Positions 3,185 through 24,567 of a stretch of 24,738 bases of DNA are shown piece by piece. The stretch is from the IMG/VR virus record IMGVR_UViG_3300044676_001594, positions 1 to 24,738 of that record. One strand, 5' to 3'. Source of the stretch: a virus (lineage: Duplodnaviria; Caudoviricetes). Positions within the stretch are counted from its first letter, which is position 1. Each line of letters opens with the position of its first letter. The notes beneath the pieces are model-generated. The model was not told the DNA's origin. It ran no database searches and saw nothing but the letters and a program-made list of their open reading frames with translations. Both the position numbers and the translations under genes were made by a program.

Positions 3185-3958
3185 TTAATATGGTTTTGTA
3201 GATGTTACAAATGTAGCACCGTTGTTAGTACCGTTGTTAACACCAGTCTCATCATTAGCATTGTTCTCTAATCGATAGAATGAAGTGAATTGCGGGTAGA
3301 GTTTACTTGATCCTACGATGTTAGAAACTTCTGTGCTTGTTAATTCGCGATTAAAGATAGCTACTTCGTCTAAGTACCCTCCAAATGGGCTTGTTGAATT
3401 GCTGTTAGCTCCAATTTTTAAAGTATCAGTTGAGGAGCTTGAATTTGTCTGTGGAGCGGTCGCACTTAATATTTGAGAACCATCCCTGTACAATTTTATA
3501 TTACCCCCAGCGGCACAAGTCGCAGCAATATGGTGCCAGTTGTTATCGCTAATAGCATTAGAGACATCAAAGGAGAAGTCAGGAAGTACCCGTATTCTTA
3601 ATTTTTTGGGTGAACCTTGGCTAGACCTGTTATCGTACCAAATATACGCATGAGAATTAGCTACTAAAAATTGGTTCACATCGGTTGTATAAGCTGTAAA
3701 CTTCAACCAAAAAGTAATACTAAAGTTACAAGTCTGCTGTATGAAATCGAACTTGTTGTTTGTATCGATGTAGTCATTCGTACCGTCAAACAAAGCACTA
3801 TAACTGTTGGTTTTGAAAGAAGCTCCATCATTCTGATACCCTCTCCAATTCGTGCCGTCATATACGATGACATTCTTCGTGTCTGTTTCAAATAATACAT
3901 CCCCGTCCGTTGGAGAACCAGGGCGTGTGGCTGATGTGCAAGTGCTGAATGTACTCAT
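3185..3958 (-). CDS. LamG/concanavalin A-like lectin domain protein (putative receptor-binding protein)
   Basis: FDGTNDYI, FSITFWLK, WHHIAAT, KLYRDG, FGGYLDEVAIFNRELTSTEV are LamG_3-type signatures. N-terminal fibre module RPGSPTDGDVLFETDT..VYDGTNW. Confidence 0.85.
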   Translation of the reverse strand: MSTFSTCTSATRPGSPTDGDVLFETDTKNVIVYDGTNWRGYQNDGASFKTNSYSALFDGTNDYIDTNNKFDFIQQTCNFSITFWLKFTAYTTDVNQFLVANSHAYIWYDNRSSQGSPKKLRIRVLPDFSFDVSNAISDNNWHHIAATCAAGGNIKLYRDGSQILSATAPQTNSSSSTDTLKIGANSNSTSPFGGYLDEVAIFNRELTSTEVSNIVGSSKLYPQFTSFYRLENNANDETGVNNGTNNGATFVTSTKPY

Positions 3959-3961
3959 GTT

Positions 3962-4174
3962 TTACGGTGTATAATCGTTATTGTAAATGTACCAAGCTGA
4001 CCCGTCCCATATGTATATGTCGTATGTATCCGTTCCGAACTTGACTGTTACTTCTCCTGTTGGGTTGGTGGGTGATGATGCTAAGATGTTAGACTCTGTA
4101 TCTGTATCAACATTGAATACGGATTCAGTAATAGTAGCAATAACACCTAACGCAAATGTTGGCAATACAAACAT
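3962..4174 (-). CDS. Short fibre adaptor protein, 70 aa
   Basis: Hydrophobic N-terminus. The last 15 aa (WDGSAWYIYNNDYTP) are identical to those of ORF 4666-5640. Confidence 0.65.
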   Translation of the reverse strand: MFVLPTFALGVIATITESVFNVDTDTESNILASSPTNPTGEVTVKFGTDTYDIYIWDGSAWYIYNNDYTP

Positions 4175-4177
4175 ATT

Positions 4178-4663
4178 TTATGCAACAGTATCTCCAGCAA
4201 GAACAAAGGTGTCAGCTGCATAAGCAACCACACTAGCTGCTCCGTACTGTCCCGCTATCTTGGTGTGTGATTGTCTATTGTTGATGGTAGTACCAGAAGC
4301 ACTGAAGCTTACTTGACCCGCTCCCTTTTGTACAAAGCTACAATTAAACCCAGCTCCTAAACCACTTGGTACTGTGACAGTTACAGCAGAAGCGTTGTCT
4401 AACACAACTACTTTACCGTTGTCTCCAGCTACTAATGTATAAGTGGTTCCTGTTTGATCGTTGATCGAAGCGTCGAAGTTGCTGATCGCATTACCGTTGA
4501 AGTCGTAGCTTGCCAGGTTAGAGGCAGATGCTTGCCCCATTAGATTAGTAACGGTTACCTTCTTAGTAGTAGGAGTACCTGCGACATCGTCAACGATTGC
4601 TACAATGTCAGCACCTGCTGGTGTCGTCAGCTCGGTAAGTTCTGTAATTTTTTTATTAGCCAT
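4178..4663 (-). CDS. Fibre segment / beta-rich virion protein, 161 aa
   Basis: N-terminal KKITEL...D..AIVD...TKKVT motif and a C-terminal beta domain (TYTLVAGDNGKVV...VTVTVP...QKGAGQV...GQYGAA...FVLAGD), both typical of phage fibre parts. Confidence 0.7.
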   Translation of the reverse strand: MANKKITELTELTTPAGADIVAIVDDVAGTPTTKKVTVTNLMGQASASNLASYDFNGNAISNFDASINDQTGTTYTLVAGDNGKVVVLDNASAVTVTVPSGLGAGFNCSFVQKGAGQVSFSASGTTINNRQSHTKIAGQYGAASVVAYAADTFVLAGDTVA

Positions 4664-4665
4664 GT

Positions 4666-5640
4666 TTACGGTGTGTAATCATTGTTGTAAATATACCAAG
4701 CACTACCATCCCAAACATACAGATCGTGAGTGTTGCTGCCGAAATATACGGTTGCTTGATTTGCTGGGTTGGACGGGGTGAGTAATAATATATCCGCTTC
4801 GTCTTGTTGGAAGTCGTCAGCAGAACCTGGTGTTACAAGATCGTCAGGTATGTTGTACTTATTAGCTGCTGCCTCTAAGAACAATCCGCTGATGGATGCT
4901 GTGGTAAAGTTTGTAGAAGAGAGGTTAACACTTGTTACTCCGATACTGCTTGCAGAATTAGTAAGAGTGAAGGTAACTACTGTGTCGCTACCTGTTGGTA
5001 AAGTCTGTCCGCTATCTACTGTAAGTACAAGTGTACCTGTTGACTGCGTCCAACTACCAGCCGATCCAAAGATAACAGCTCCCGCCCCACCTAAACTTAA
5101 AGAACCATTATCCGCTGTGGCACTACCTGTAAGTCCTGACAGAGTGATCGAAGAACCTGCGGAGATAGAAGCGGATGGTTGTACAGTAAATGTAAAGATG
5201 TTGGAGTTGCTTGCTAAGTTACTACTGTCTGTAAGCGTGGCAGTATCAAATGTTGCAGATATAATAAAGGTAGCTGTATTAGAGGTTGAAGTATCCACCC
5301 CATCTGTAGCTATTATCCTGTAGTAATATGTAACAGCTCCCGATAAAGGACCTGTGTCGTTAACCGTTAAACCTAAAGTACCACTAGATATAGTAGTAGG
5401 ACTTGTAAATGAAGCACTAGTATCCCGTTCGTATGTATAGCTAGTAGCTCCCGCCACACCTGTTGTACTTATAGTAGCACCGTCAACTCCGAATTGAACA
5501 ACTGTTATATCAGGCTTTGCAAGCCCAGCTACTACAGCGTCAAACCCATACAGTACCTCAAAGCTAGGTCGAATGAAGTTACCAGGGAACGCAATGATTC
5601 CGCTTGGTTTTTCAATCGACGGTGTGAGTAAGAGAGACAT
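4666..5640 (-). CDS. Ser/Thr-rich virion protein with FnIII/Ig-like domains, 324 aa
   Basis: FnIII-like L..AVTYYYRIIATDG segment, a second beta-sandwich region, and the C-terminal fibre module shared with the 70-aa ORF. Confidence 0.7.
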   Translation of the reverse strand: MSLLLTPSIEKPSGIIAFPGNFIRPSFEVLYGFDAVVAGLAKPDITVVQFGVDGATISTTGVAGATSYTYERDTSASFTSPTTISSGTLGLTVNDTGPLSGAVTYYYRIIATDGVDTSTSNTATFIISATFDTATLTDSSNLASNSNIFTFTVQPSASISAGSSITLSGLTGSATADNGSLSLGGAGAVIFGSAGSWTQSTGTLVLTVDSGQTLPTGSDTVVTFTLTNSASSIGVTSVNLSSTNFTTASISGLFLEAAANKYNIPDDLVTPGSADDFQQDEADILLLTPSNPANQATVYFGSNTHDLYVWDGSAWYIYNNDYTP

Positions 5641-5951
5641 TAAAGTGAGTCAACAGTTCCGGTAGCGTAGACGCTGTGGGTTCCTGCTGTATATGCACTT
5701 ACATTAGCTCTTAGCTTTTCGTAGTGTCCGTGGTCATCTCGTATCATAACTGATCCCAGTGCTGATACTGATTGACTGTGTACTACACGCCAAGCTCCTC
5801 CAATCCAAGCTTCTATATCTACAGTAGCTGCACCAGCAACGGATGTTTCTATTACGAATGTCCATCCCTTGTCTCGCTCTACACTGACCTCAGTACCAGG
5901 TGCTTGTGATGTACCGTTTAACAATAAAGTTTTCTTATCTAAACTTCTCAT
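5640..5951 (-). CDS. Small all-beta virion protein (decoration/adaptor candidate), 103 aa
   Basis: Alternating beta-strand pattern (WTFVIE..ATVDIEA..KLRANVS). TAATG overlap with the next gene. Confidence 0.6.
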   Translation of the reverse strand: MRSLDKKTLLLNGTSQAPGTEVSVERDKGWTFVIETSVAGAATVDIEAWIGGAWRVVHSQSVSALGSVMIRDDHGHYEKLRANVSAYTAGTHSVYATGTVDSL

Positions 5952-6385: not shown

Positions 6386-6444
6386 GTTCGTCGTTCCTCC
6401 TCACATCGTGTTTTCTCACAAGCTCGCAAAACACTCTTGTTCAT
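6382..6444 (-). CDS. 20-aa mini-ORF bridging the MTase and gp6.5-like genes
   Basis: MNKSVLRACEKTRCEEERRT, with ATGA 4-nt overlaps at both ends. Confidence 0.3.
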   Translation of the reverse strand: MNKSVLRACEKTRCEEERRT

Positions 6445-7457
6445 AATTGTTGTATTAATGTTTTGAATGCTAACTCACAGGTGTCTGGTACTACTCCGTT
6501 ACCCAAGAGCCTAAGTCTGTCCACCCTGAAGGCAGTCCCATTAGCTGACAGACCCACGCAGGATTGAGCTTCGGTGACCCTTGGTTCTTCCCACTCGTAC
6601 TGTTGCTGACCGGGTCTTGAGGGCCATCTAGTCTTGCCAAGTCCCGACCCAAGCATTTCTGATTTGATTCTGTCGCTGTCCTCGCACCCTCCACATGATC
6701 GCTCGCTTGAGGTGTTGCCCAATTCTTCGGGTTGTGTACCACTTCCCCTAGATTGCACTTCCCTCTGTCGTATGTCGCATCTCTGCTCATCGTTTCCCTT
6801 GGTGTAGGCCAATTGTCCAGCTCCCCCCGACGAGCCATAGCCGTCAAACACTTGCTCGCTTGTGTGTTCCCGCCTATCCTGTACTTCTCTTCGCTGGCTT
6901 GCGGTGTCGGATAACTTCCCAAGGATGAACACTCGTTTCCGTTGGTGTGGAGCGCCTGTTTCAGACGCGCTGAATACTCCCCACGTACACGAGTAACCTC
7001 TTTCTTCCAAGTCTCCGAGGACATATTTAAGTACCGATTCTCCGTCTGCTGTTTTAGCTGAGATGATTCCTTCGACATTTTCAAAGAGGACATATCGTGG
7101 TCGCATAGCGGTAACTCCATCTGCGATCCAAGGCCACAAGTGTCGTGGGTCTTCTGTTGCTTGTCGTTTTCCTGCACTACTGAATGGTTGGCAAGGGAAC
7201 CCTGCACTGAGGATGGTAACTTTGTCACGTAGTTCTCGATACGGAAACTGCTTGAGGTCCGTGAAAACAGGACACGCATCCAAGAGTCCCGCTTCCATTT
7301 TCGCAATAAGGTTGGCAACTGCATAGGCTTCGATCTCGCAGTGAGCAATAGTTCGCAGGTTTGGAATAGCTCGTTTAAGTCCGATTCCGATGCCGTCGTA
7401 CCCGCTGCACAAAGAGACGTAGGTAGGAATACTAGTGGTTGTTTCATCGTTATTCAC
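6441..7457 (-). CDS. DNA cytosine-5 methyltransferase, catalytic (alpha) chain: motifs I-VIII and X
   Basis: SLCSGYDG (I), GFPCQPFS (IV), FENVEG (VI), PHQRKRVF (VIII), RLRLLGNGVVP (X). No motif IX in this frame. Confidence 0.92.
   Translation of the reverse strand: MNNDETTTSIPTYVSLCSGYDGIGIGLKRAIPNLRTIAHCEIEAYAVANLIAKMEAGLLDACPVFTDLKQFPYRELRDKVTILSAGFPCQPFSSAGKRQATEDPRHLWPWIADGVTAMRPRYVLFENVEGIISAKTADGESVLKYVLGDLEERGYSCTWGVFSASETGAPHQRKRVFILGKLSDTASQRREVQDRREHTSEQVFDGYGSSGGAGQLAYTKGNDEQRCDIRQREVQSRGSGTQPEELGNTSSERSCGGCEDSDRIKSEMLGSGLGKTRWPSRPGQQQYEWEEPRVTEAQSCVGLSANGTAFRVDRLRLLGNGVVPDTCELAFKTLIQQL
6491..7447 (-). CDS. Overlapping-frame second (beta) chain of the C5 MTase: TP repeats plus motif IX
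   Basis: 318 stop-free codons nested in the alpha gene, with YPTPQAS, WPTPRET and WATPQAS repeats and LNPAWVCQLMGLPSGWT. Its ATG is 2 nt after the upstream gene's TAA. Confidence 0.75.
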   Translation of the reverse strand: MKQPLVFLPTSLCAAGTTASESDLNELFQTCELLLTARSKPMQLPTLLRKWKRDSWMRVLFSRTSSSFRIENYVTKLPSSVQGSLANHSVVQENDKQQKTHDTCGLGSQMELPLCDHDMSSLKMSKESSQLKQQTENRYLNMSSETWKKEVTRVRGEYSARLKQALHTNGNECSSLGSYPTPQASEEKYRIGGNTQASKCLTAMARRGELDNWPTPRETMSRDATYDRGKCNLGEVVHNPKNWATPQASDHVEGARTATESNQKCLGRDLARLDGPQDPVSNSTSGKNQGSPKLNPAWVCQLMGLPSGWTDLGSWVTE

Positions 7458-22214: not shown

Positions 22215-22243
22215 AGTGTATTAGTAGTTGTTATCTTTGTAAA
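22215..22243 (-). promoter_or_regulatory. Sigma70-type promoter for the terminase genes (leaderless)
   Basis: TTTACA-N17-TACACT-N6-ATG. Confidence 0.6.
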
Positions 22244-22273
22244 CAAAAAGAGGCAGCCCGATTGGACTGCCCC
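22241..22273 (-). terminator. Rho-independent terminator after the 317-aa fibre gene
   Basis: GGGGCAGTCC-AATC-GGGCTGCCTC-TTTTTGTTT. Confidence 0.88.
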
Positions 22274-22298
22274 TTGATGATAGATATGAGATAAACTC

Positions 22299-23252
22299 TT
22301 AGCTTAAAGCAGCTTCGAACTCAGCAACGGTTCCTAATTCAGTTCCGTTGTGGTAGAGGTCTGCATCAAACTTAGCAGCACTTGCTGATCCGTCTGTTGA
22401 AGAGATGTCAGTGGAAGCAGCAGTAGCGGAAGTCGAGAGAACCTTGAACTTGTCGTCTCCTTCGTCCCAGATCAAAGCTACATTGCTTTCAGCAGAACCA
22501 CGCTCAACGATGAAACCACCGTCATTCGAGGCATTCGTTCCGGAACCAGCACCTTTAGAAAGGTTCATGATGCTGTCAGCTACATCGATGTTAGTGGTGT
22601 TTACCGAAGTGGTTGTACCATTAACAGTCAAGTTACCGCTGAATGTAGCGTTGGCAGCCGAGATGTCACCAGAGAAGGAAGCGGAGTTACCGTCAGAAGC
22701 AAGTGATCCAGCTTTAGTTTGCAACGCAGAGATGTCTGTGTCGTTACTGGCTACATTGGTTTGCAGAGTGGAGATGTCCGAATCATTCGAAGAAACATTG
22801 CTTTGCAAGGTAGCGATGTCGGAATCGTTGGAGCTAACATTAGACTGAAGAGTCGAGATAGCAGAGGCGTTAGTAGAAACGCTGGACTGAAGGCTGGAGA
22901 TGTCGGTATCGTTAGAAGATACAGCGTCAGCAACAGTTTTAAGTTGGCTATCAAGAGCTTCGTCAGCAGCTTTAAGGCTGGCTACAGAACCGAGATAGTT
23001 GGTCGAACCGTTAGCACTGTAAGCACCGTTAGCACCGAGACCAGCACCAGTTTGAGTAGCATCTACTTCGGATTGAAGAGAAGTTACATCTGAAGATACG
23101 GCATCAACATATTGCTTGGTAGCAGCGTGGAGGTTGGCGGAAGGATCAGCTGAGAGCGTCAAAGCTCCAGTCATTGTTCCTCCTGCGAGGGCAAGCTTCT
23201 TATCAAGCTCTACTTTGGTTTTTTGTCCCAATTGGGTTAACAAACTAGACAT
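22299..23252 (-). CDS. Trimeric coiled-coil fibre protein, 317 aa
   Basis: GGTMTGAL, DP...HAATKQYVD, 14-aa heptad repeats, GNLTVNGTTTSVNT...D, GF.VERG, WDE..DKF: all common phage fibre motifs. Confidence 0.82.
   Translation of the reverse strand: MSSLLTQLGQKTKVELDKKLALAGGTMTGALTLSADPSANLHAATKQYVDAVSSDVTSLQSEVDATQTGAGLGANGAYSANGSTNYLGSVASLKAADEALDSQLKTVADAVSSNDTDISSLQSSVSTNASAISTLQSNVSSNDSDIATLQSNVSSNDSDISTLQTNVASNDTDISALQTKAGSLASDGNSASFSGDISAANATFSGNLTVNGTTTSVNTTNIDVADSIMNLSKGAGSGTNASNDGGFIVERGSAESNVALIWDEGDDKFKVLSTSATAASTDISSTDGSASAAKFDADLYHNGTELGTVAEFEAALS
22713..22922 (-). repeat. Five 42-bp (14-aa) tandem coding repeats
   Basis: VSSNDTDISSLQSS/VSTNASAISTLQSN/VSSNDSDIATLQSN/VSSNDSDISTLQTN/VASNDTDISALQTK. 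Confidence 0.85.
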
Positions 23253-23303
23253 AATATATATACTTTCTTTTGTGGGTTAAGCTTATCAGTTAATATGTGA
23301 TAA

Positions 23304-23332
23304 AGAGTATTAGCAGAACTTATATCTGTCAA
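23304..23332 (-). promoter_or_regulatory. Sigma70-type promoter for the 317-aa fibre gene
   Basis: TTGACA (23332-23327)-N17-TACTCT (23309-23304). Confidence 0.65.
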
Positions 23333-23673
23333 ACAGCTTCAGTAATAAGTATAGCACCAGCTTCTGTTGTCAGACTGTCTCCATCTTCTGCAAGTATATG
23401 AGTAGCAGTAGGTACTGCACCGCCAAGCTCTACAATCTTCCAAGCAGTTCCATCGTCAACAGCGATACAAGGACCACCCGATCCGTCACCATCTGTTACA
23501 TATATGATACGACCTGATGTACCTGCTGCTGGTAGACTGGATGCTAAATATGATCCTATTTGCAGAGATTGTGATATATTTACCGCTCCACTGATCAACC
23601 CTCCAGACTTATCAAACTTGTTATCAAGCTTGGCTTTTACCTTCTGTCCTAACTGTGTAAGTACGCTGCTCAT
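23329..23673 (-). CDS. Short fibre protein with an N-terminus paralogous to the 317-aa protein, 114 aa
   Basis: MSSVLTQLGQKVKAKLDNK..SGG.ISG versus MSSLLTQLGQKTKVELDKK..AGG.MTG. C-terminal ILAEDGDSLTTEAGAILITE. Confidence 0.75.
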   Translation of the reverse strand: MSSVLTQLGQKVKAKLDNKFDKSGGLISGAVNISQSLQIGSYLASSLPAAGTSGRIIYVTDGDGSGGPCIAVDDGTAWKIVELGGAVPTATHILAEDGDSLTTEAGAILITEAV

Positions 23674-23675
23674 AT

Positions 23676-23909
23676 CTAAGGTGTTGAGAGACCATCTATA
23701 AAGTCTTGATAATCACCAACTTCCTCTTCACGAGCGTCCAAGAAGTAAGGCAAAGAGTTCCAAGCTGTCGTCCCGTCTCCTATCTTAATTCTGTTACGAG
23801 CGGGGTCTAATTCAAGACCTAGTTCACCTTCGAGAAGTACGGGGTTGGTGGTCTGCCAGTTGGTAGCGGTATCTCTTCTAAGTTGTATTCTTTTACTAAA
23901 TGTAGCCAT
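23676..23909 (-). CDS. Stand-alone Mtd_N / hyaluronidase N-terminal-like fibre attachment domain, 77 aa
   Basis: RIQLRRDTATNW...NPVLLEGELGLE.D...KIGDGTTAWNSLPY. Confidence 0.85.
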   Translation of the reverse strand: MATFSKRIQLRRDTATNWQTTNPVLLEGELGLELDPARNRIKIGDGTTAWNSLPYFLDAREEEVGDYQDFIDGLSTP

Positions 23910-23912
23910 CTG

Positions 23913-24146
23913 TTAAGCTCCTCCTCCATTGTAAACATCTAAGTTATTATCAACGACAGCTCTTTGTGATTGAATGATTGGATCACCTAAAGGAGCGTCG
24001 CCAGCGTCTAAAGCAACGACATCAGGGTCTTGTTTCAAAAGTTCTACTGTTTGGTTCACTTGTGTGGCGACAGCAGCGGATACAGCGTTCAGCGTCCGGT
24101 ACTGAGCGGATAGTGGGTGTGGACGAACTACAGGGCGACGAGGCAT
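23913..24146 (-). CDS. Hypothetical adaptor-like protein, 77 aa
   Basis: Basic N-terminus, short helix, LDAGDA and YNGGGA motifs. Tiles with neighbours. Confidence 0.6.
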   Translation of the reverse strand: MPRRPVVRPHPLSAQYRTLNAVSAAVATQVNQTVELLKQDPDVVALDAGDAPLGDPIIQSQRAVVDNNLDVYNGGGA

Positions 24147-24148
24147 GA

Positions 24149-24424
24149 CTACGCTACTGATTTAGCCCCTCTGCACTTCCACTTCTTACGACTGAGGCTA
24201 TTAGGACTGTTAGGATCATTCTTCCAATTTCCTTTTATCTTTAAAGACCTAGCACAGTAAGCATCACCTTTAGGAGTTCCTGGTCTAATTCTATCACCAC
24301 CACCTTTAGCTTTACCTGATTGACCGTAGCCTATGCGACGCTTTCTTCCCGTCTTAGGGTTAGTAACAACTTTAACGAAACGCTTACCTTTAGGCTTCTT
24401 TATACTGAGACCTTTGCGTGCCAT
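24149..24424 (-). CDS. Small basic phage protein, 91 aa
   Basis: K.....GYGQ.G...PGTPKGDAYCARS...DPNSPN.LSRKKWKC pattern, recalled from aquatic phages. Confidence 0.75.
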   Translation of the reverse strand: MARKGLSIKKPKGKRFVKVVTNPKTGRKRRIGYGQSGKAKGGGDRIRPGTPKGDAYCARSLKIKGNWKNDPNSPNSLSRKKWKCRGAKSVA

Positions 24425-24429
24425 TACTT

Positions 24430-24567
24430 TTAGCTAGGGAATCCTTTTTTCATGTTAGAGTAAGATTTAGCACTTACCGTAGAATTTTTCTTACTACGAC
24501 TAATACCTAAACGCCTACGGTTATTCATGTTCTCGTACAGTCCTGGTCTTTTAATCTTTCTTTTCAT
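24430..24567 (-). CDS. Small basic protein, 45 aa
   Basis: Not in the track. MKRKIKRPGLYENMNNRRRLGISRSKKNSTVSAKSYSNMKKGFPS, with GAGG upstream. Confidence 0.65.
   Translation of the reverse strand: MKRKIKRPGLYENMNNRRRLGISRSKKNSTVSAKSYSNMKKGFPS

Follow-up and report, generated by a model that had tools for sequence, protein, structure and literature searches.

A conserved, probable socket-and-plug connector in phage fiber cassettes and a possible self-polymerizing filament in an aquatic podovirus family

The reach of podoviruses is generally taken to be no more than a few tens of nanometers from the capsid, with a fiber length that is fixed by gene length. The locus analyzed here raises the question of whether a fiber subunit that carries both halves of an end-to-end joint could chain with copies of itself into a filament. 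It lies in a stretch of 24,738 nucleotides (hereafter, the window) from the virus record IMGVR_UViG_3300044676_001594, which represents a 63% complete virus and shows the hallmarks of a T7-like phage: a single-subunit RNA polymerase, a helicase-primase, a DNA polymerase, a T7-type portal, a scaffold, and a terminase. The closest terminases in an annotated collection belong to an uncultured marine phage (65%) and to Roseobacter phages (approximately 60%). A complete 41.7-kb relative with terminal repeats (G001) carries the same cassette between its tail-fiber genes and its terminase.

Elsewhere in the window, a C5 DNA methylase ORF (6441-7457, minus strand) has a second, same-strand ORF of 318 aa (6491-7447) overlapping its whole extent, and an alternative frame resembling the latter is likewise open in G001. 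Two very basic small proteins of 91 and 45 aa are encoded at 24149-24567 (minus strand); the 91-aa gene is swapped for unrelated basic proteins in close relatives.

Cassette layout and the two terminal motifs

The cassette comprises the following parts, all on the minus strand:

22299-23252, minus strand: rod protein F, the proposed polymer subunit (317-aa ORF; domain plan from a monomer model and relatives)
23193..23252, minus strand: socket of F, residues 1-20, pattern [ILV][LFW]xx[ILMV]Gxx[VT]K (alignments)
22302..22343, minus strand: plug of F, residues 304-317, pattern [LVY]GxxxxFxx[AG]L (alignments)
23329-23673, minus strand: adaptor C, 114 aa, with a socket, a small beta domain, and the C-terminal acidic motif LxxExGxxLxxExGxxL, without a plug (ORF and model)
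23676-23909, minus strand: anchor A, 77 aa, with an Mtd_N domain (residues 8-48) and a plug (residues 63-75), without a socket (Pfam)
23913-24146, minus strand: upstream adaptor U, 77 aa, with an Arg/Pro-rich start, a short helix-like middle, and two DGG-like motifs (ORF)

F is laid out as a socket helix (residues 2-22), a hyaluronidase-type shaft repeat, a long coiled coil (80-181), a beta-rich distal domain, and a plug helix (309-316). Its monomer model places helices at 2-22, 39-69, and 80-181, strands at 246-307, and a terminal helix at 309-316; with a mean pLDDT of 72 and a pTM of 0.36 (and a pLDDT of 60 for C), the models were used for secondary structure only. Residues 11-55 of F are similar to the shaft repeat of phage hyaluronidases. 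Relatives range from 289 to 363 aa, mostly in length steps that are multiples of 7, and from the heptad repeats and the fiber relatives we infer that F is trimeric. One such trimer would be approximately 30-40 nm long, of which 154 predicted helical residues would account for 23 nm, the contribution of the beta parts being an estimate. In P0222, a relative of the rod, a plug-like motif is followed by an extra domain of approximately 120 aa, which is perhaps a chain terminator or a branch.

Foldseek with the models returned no solved fold at E<=0.001, neither terminus of F is covered by any family in a Pfam scan, matches in the ESM Atlas are unnamed viral clusters only, and weak PHROG matches carry the label minor head protein. 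Among cultured phages, 35 records match F, none of them over >80% of its length. Prokaryote genomes yielded 29 loci with the distal domain only, and plug or socket genes were not found there. A search seeded with P0176 gave 77 loci that contain the shaft repeat alone, and repeat proteins dominate a representative search, in which 7 of 150 matches are near full-length relatives of F or fragments of these. A matches Mtd_N (PF18454) at 49.2 bits against a cut-off of 26.3.

The two ends of F recur in its neighbors, as a first-pass annotation of this sequence had pointed out. Its N-terminus is common to C, with 14 of the first 20 residues identical; because 9 of those 14 residues are encoded by different codons, the likeness is maintained at the protein level, and on account of the synonymous differences we rejected gene conversion as its origin. 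Its C-terminus, ELGTVAEFEAALS, resembles that of the Mtd_N protein, EVGDYQDFIDGLSTP (2 residues longer than originally given), in that both end in GxxxxFxx[AG]L; G307 and F312 are invariant in the plug alignments. Outside this pattern, the plug of A is not the same as that of F, which would allow binding in a set order. All 41 distinct plugs carry a net negative charge, and 28 of 37 sockets are net positive (5 of 37 are net negative). In a shuffled-ORF control the two terminal patterns match 2 and 0 of 36,745, although the patterns were derived from the very sequences later counted.

Distribution of the motifs and the proposed joint

The first-pass annotation had suggested looking for co-occurrence of the two motifs across phage genomes, and this holds well beyond the window. 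Among 8013 distinct ORFs, 146 carry both motifs, 131 the socket only, and 85 the plug only, and they fall into three motif-defined classes: plug only for Mtd_N anchors, socket only for adaptors, and both for rods. A further 97 ORFs have the distal domain with neither motif, and none of the 8013 joins Mtd_N with a socket. In clade 1, the order anchor, adaptor, rod is found in 65 of 80 loci; among the remaining 15, the end of the contig or locus truncates 13, and the anchor starts with GTG in the other 2. In clade 2, also T7-like, the order is anchor, two adaptors, rod in 50 of 80 loci, with LamG genes as well, the other 30 not having been checked singly; clade-2 rods are approximately 43% identical. 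Outside the T7-like phages, G004 and G005 each encode a small protein that ends in a plug, together with a rod and an adaptor that carries only the socket, and a fifth group (L326, L461-L471, L505, and L517) has a DGG adaptor, an Mtd_N-plus-plug protein, a rod, an adaptor, and a tip, located 3' of a nozzle-like gene. At L442, a rod stands without an anchor or adaptor in the 6 kb of sequence covered. Judged by these motif matches, socket and plug are conserved in two clades of T7-like phages and in three further groups that are unrelated, even though the rod bodies differ (43-65% identity, 206-412 aa) and three capsid families are involved (phrog_267, 334, and 1328). This evidence weighs as approximately five lineages and not as hundreds of cases, since the loci are relatives of one another and supplied the patterns. 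Counting against a matched pair, motifs from one genome are not significantly more alike than motifs compared across the five lineages (socket p=0.06, plug p=0.43). Clade 2 has three socket types with two plug types, so that at least one plug would have to accept more than one socket.

Several arrangements beyond this common plan were also seen. Two anchors without Mtd_N (L165:3113-3427 and L325:2148-2423) start with MPRRKK, as U does, and apparently contain two plug-like helices each. In G004, the gene of the socket-only adaptor (L321:894-1103, minus strand) and the rod gene point away from each other on opposite strands. A glycine-rich lipoprotein-like gene close to the genes for the capsid or the rod occurs in G003, G004, and G005 alike, unrelated as these phage types are, and may indicate a common host group.

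Natural fusions bear on whether the two motifs meet. In P0245, P0248, and P0258, single chains run from Mtd_N through approximately 15 linker residues into the equivalent of F residues 16-50, and streptococcal phage hyaluronidases likewise place the shaft repeat after Mtd_N. Because the fusions link Mtd_N straight to the N-terminal repeats of the rod, plug and socket would replace a covalent linker; a common capsid-binding site is unlikely as an explanation, since the motif pair persists across three capsid families and differing rod bodies. We therefore regard docking of the plug on the socket as very probable, with an acidic C-terminal plug helix that would pack on a mostly basic N-terminal socket helix. 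We judge the connector to be real, conserved, and apparently undescribed.

Further parts may extend the chain on both sides. Toward the virion, a DGG-like end occurs upstream of an Mtd_N-type start in 51 of 70 distinct gene pairs, against a background of 136/4760, and U is the proposed partner of the Mtd_N domain of A. On the distal side, three genes are of interest:

4178..4663, minus strand: 161-aa protein that starts MANKKI, the proposed next link after the acidic motif of C (C-terminal domain as in the P0245 tip)
3962..4174, minus strand: 70-aa small adaptor, whose C-terminal domain resembles clade-2 socket-only adaptors (by eye)
3185..3958, minus strand: 257-aa LamG (concanavalin-like) protein, the proposed receptor-binding tip (PF13385, 93 bits)

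C had been cast as a cap that ends the filament. We rejected a dead-end cap as the main reading because genes of the MANKKI type are immediately preceded by a gene that closes with this acidic motif, in 42 of 78 loci when scored by pattern and in 49 when scored by eye (for example, in G002). Both complete genomes that encode the 114-aa adaptor also have the MANKKI gene, which is missing from the one complete genome with clade-2 adaptors, and the C-terminal domain of P0245 matches that of the 161-aa protein (43%, E 9e-17). C is thus probably an adaptor to a lectin tip, and the 161-aa, 70-aa, and LamG proteins would complete the chain, judging from gene order and likeness by eye.

These three genes belong to a series of small structural genes that precedes the portal gene (3185-5951, minus strand; 103, 324, 161, 70, 257, and 76 aa). 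A common C-terminal domain links the 324-aa and 70-aa proteins, many relatives encode a short acidic-motif-ended protein in place of the 324-aa gene, and the series possibly encodes a separate head spike with tips common to the filament. In G001, the T7-type tail fiber (L313:17996-19986, minus strand) is split into parts of 262 aa (with DWG/YGQ end motifs), 153 aa (Mtd-like at its start and ending in LDFG), and 239 aa (again Mtd-like at its start), and this three-gene fiber looks like a second peptide-jointed chain.

Expression of the rod gene

Transcription signals of its own had been proposed for F, and candidates for both are present:

23304..23332, minus strand: candidate sigma70-like promoter TTGACA-N17-TACTCT, which shares bases with the stop codon of the gene for C (sequence; pattern in relatives)
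22241..22275, minus strand: intrinsic-terminator-like site 3' of F, a 12-pair hairpin with a T-run at 22275-22248 (sequence; kept in related loci)

The promoter pattern TTGACA-17-TAnnnT stands 5' of the rod in all 70 related clade-1 loci examined, with spacer sequences that vary and a TGA that usually doubles as the stop codon of the 114-aa gene; a consensus scan missed the site because its -10 box matches at 3 of 6 positions. The description of F as monocistronic was too strong, as nothing resembling a terminator was found between the genes for C and F, and read-through from C would thus be possible besides separate transcription. Nor are these flanking signals universal across the family. 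Promoter-like and terminator-like sequences flank the rod in G001, G002, G004 (by eye), and G005, and clade 2 is without them: a scan of 79 rod genes found the promoter pattern 5' of one, L165, which itself lies outside clade 2.

Codon usage points in the same direction within the lineage of the window. The preference of F for C-ending codons noted earlier is real overall but modest (52:22 versus 710:545 in 19 other window genes, p=0.02), and its share of 0.70 is close to the 0.65-0.69 of several replication genes. Scored on capsid-gene usage, F ranks first of 17 window genes. The rod is second after the capsid gene in G001 (of 49), G002 (of 43), G003 (of 42, with a weak score of -0.006 versus 0.175 for the capsid gene), G004 (of 22), and G005 (of 29, with the capsid gene assumed from position and the rod scored over 125 aa only). 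Anchors and adaptors of G001-G005 rank 12-38, and those of G001 and G002 rank 19-38.

In one estuary study, RNA-library contigs from four samples span the cassette. Their depth over F is 191, 1059, 134, and 563-672, compared with 12-100 for C, A, and U and 7-34 for the terminase; although these values, too, would point to an excess of rod, we left them out as evidence because contig depth cannot rank genes. In 3 of the 4 samples the contigs end at 22273. A run of unrecorded type has a flat depth of 3-4 across the cassette, and three runs of a second study gave short divergent pieces only.

Filament models and their significance

In the assembly that we propose, the order from the virion outward would be U (DGG peptides), a trimer of A (Mtd_N and plug), n trimers of F, a trimer of C (socket and acidic motif), the 161-aa protein, the small adaptor, and the LamG tip. 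Since F carries both ends, it would chain head-to-tail, several copies deep, and n would track the ratio of rod to adaptor, because the cassette is without a tape-measure-like gene. That ratio was apparently raised in this lineage by placing F behind its own promoter. Attachment at the tail nozzle is a guess, prompted by anchor genes that directly follow a nozzle-like gene in three other phage groups.

The expression asymmetry expected of a polymer is found in this lineage at the level of codon usage, and we consider it rather likely that F self-polymerizes in this phage. A different picture emerges in G006-G010, where the same parts stand in assembly order, mostly tightly coupled and without rod promoter or terminator signals, and rods have codon ranks of 8/55, 7 and 13/24, 33/44, 17/37, and 12/27; G007 (L471:2899-4296) even has two different socket-plus-plug genes in tandem (149 and 314 aa). 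This arrangement looks like a fixed chain. We read the whole as one connector that would be used with near-equal amounts of the parts in G006-G010 and with a large rod excess in G001-G005, whose rod gene is the last of the set and where an excess of a subunit with both joint halves would most simply make a polymer.

Could the window phage build a fixed chain as well, with the plug of A taking only F, the plug of F taking only C, and one extender of approximately 40 nm per fiber? The collinear genes of G006-G010, the rods there without capsid-like codon bias, and the tandem extenders of G007 all argue for such a scheme, as do the differences between the plugs of A and F and the variation of rod length in heptad steps, which already tunes reach. 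It nevertheless leaves unexplained why, in this lineage, a dedicated promoter and terminator together with capsid-like codons are confined to F, with A and C at ranks 19-38, and why F has shifted out of assembly order: the assembly order and similar expression expected of a fixed segmented fiber are found in G006-G010, whereas G001 and G002 have the order A-C-F with the rod at rank 2. We consider a fixed chain rather unlikely for F.

Two other explanations for F seem less probable still. F might be a high-copy capsid fiber whose N-terminus binds a capsid site for which C competes, its C-terminal helix serving as a trimerization cap or otherwise; high expression would suit a decoration protein, and the weak PHROG label fits, but the socket is found alongside capsid proteins of three unrelated families, the fusions put the socket region straight after Mtd_N, and the plug would be left without a partner, so that we hold this to be improbable. 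Slightly more doubtful still is that F polymerizes mostly off virions into filaments set free at lysis, as decoys or to aggregate particles and cells. Its own sigma70-like promoter does uncouple it from the anchor, and a self-compatible subunit can assemble anchorless, as recombinant F-ENA is reported to do (PMC12357932), yet anchor and adaptor are present in clade 1 wherever the flanks are checkable, amid structural genes.

The closest known logic to a self-polymerizing F, by analogy and not homology, is that of F-ENA, an endospore appendage of Bacillus thuringiensis. Its description reports neighboring F-Anchor, F-ENA, and F-BclA genes, which encode an anchor with the docking end of the polymer, a trimeric subunit that self-assembles in E. 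coli, and a tip with a docking N-terminus (PMC12357932). A gene trio with such common docking ends is present here at the sequence level, with F as the putative polymer subunit. F-ENA joins 96-aa domains by an N-terminal hook (PMC12357932), whereas F would be a coiled-coil rod of approximately 35 nm with a predicted helix-helix joint. F, C, A, and U are without DUF4183 in a Pfam scan, there are no collagen repeats or exosporium leader, and the setting is a phage and not a spore-forming Firmicute. The streptococcal phage hyaluronidase HylP (PDB 2dp5, 2yvv, and 6x3m; Mtd_N PF18454) similarly has an Mtd_N cap with an ELDKKLxLxGGxMTG shaft repeat behind it, but is one chain with a catalytic beta-helix, whereas here the junction is split between genes and carries plug and socket instead.

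Separate trimeric proteins joined end to end are familiar from T4 gp34-gp37 and from branched podovirus spikes. Each joint of T4-type segmented fibers is unique and their length is fixed, and we know of no segment among them that holds both halves of one joint. A literature search for a self-polymerizing phage fiber, with most subscription papers outside its coverage, found nothing relevant. Long flexible appendages for first contact, as proposed here, are described for the capsid fibers of phages 7-7-1 and phiCbK; those of 7-7-1 measure 88-114 nm, and their proteins and structure are stated there to be unknown (PMC12796354).

We tentatively suggest, with confidence a little short of even, that an aquatic podovirus family turned a segment of a peptide-jointed tail fiber into a self-polymerizing subunit, such that placing the rod behind its own promoter would yield ruler-free filaments of hundreds of nanometers or more with exchangeable lectin tips, while sister lineages kept low-copy, fixed-looking chains. 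The joint, being two short helices, could serve as a compact end-to-end connector in protein materials. If the proposal is true, it would offer a candidate mechanism for long virion filaments of unidentified proteins, a step from segmented fiber to pilus-like polymer would be visible in living genomes, and the encounter rates estimated for abundant estuarine phages would change, with filament length following expression.
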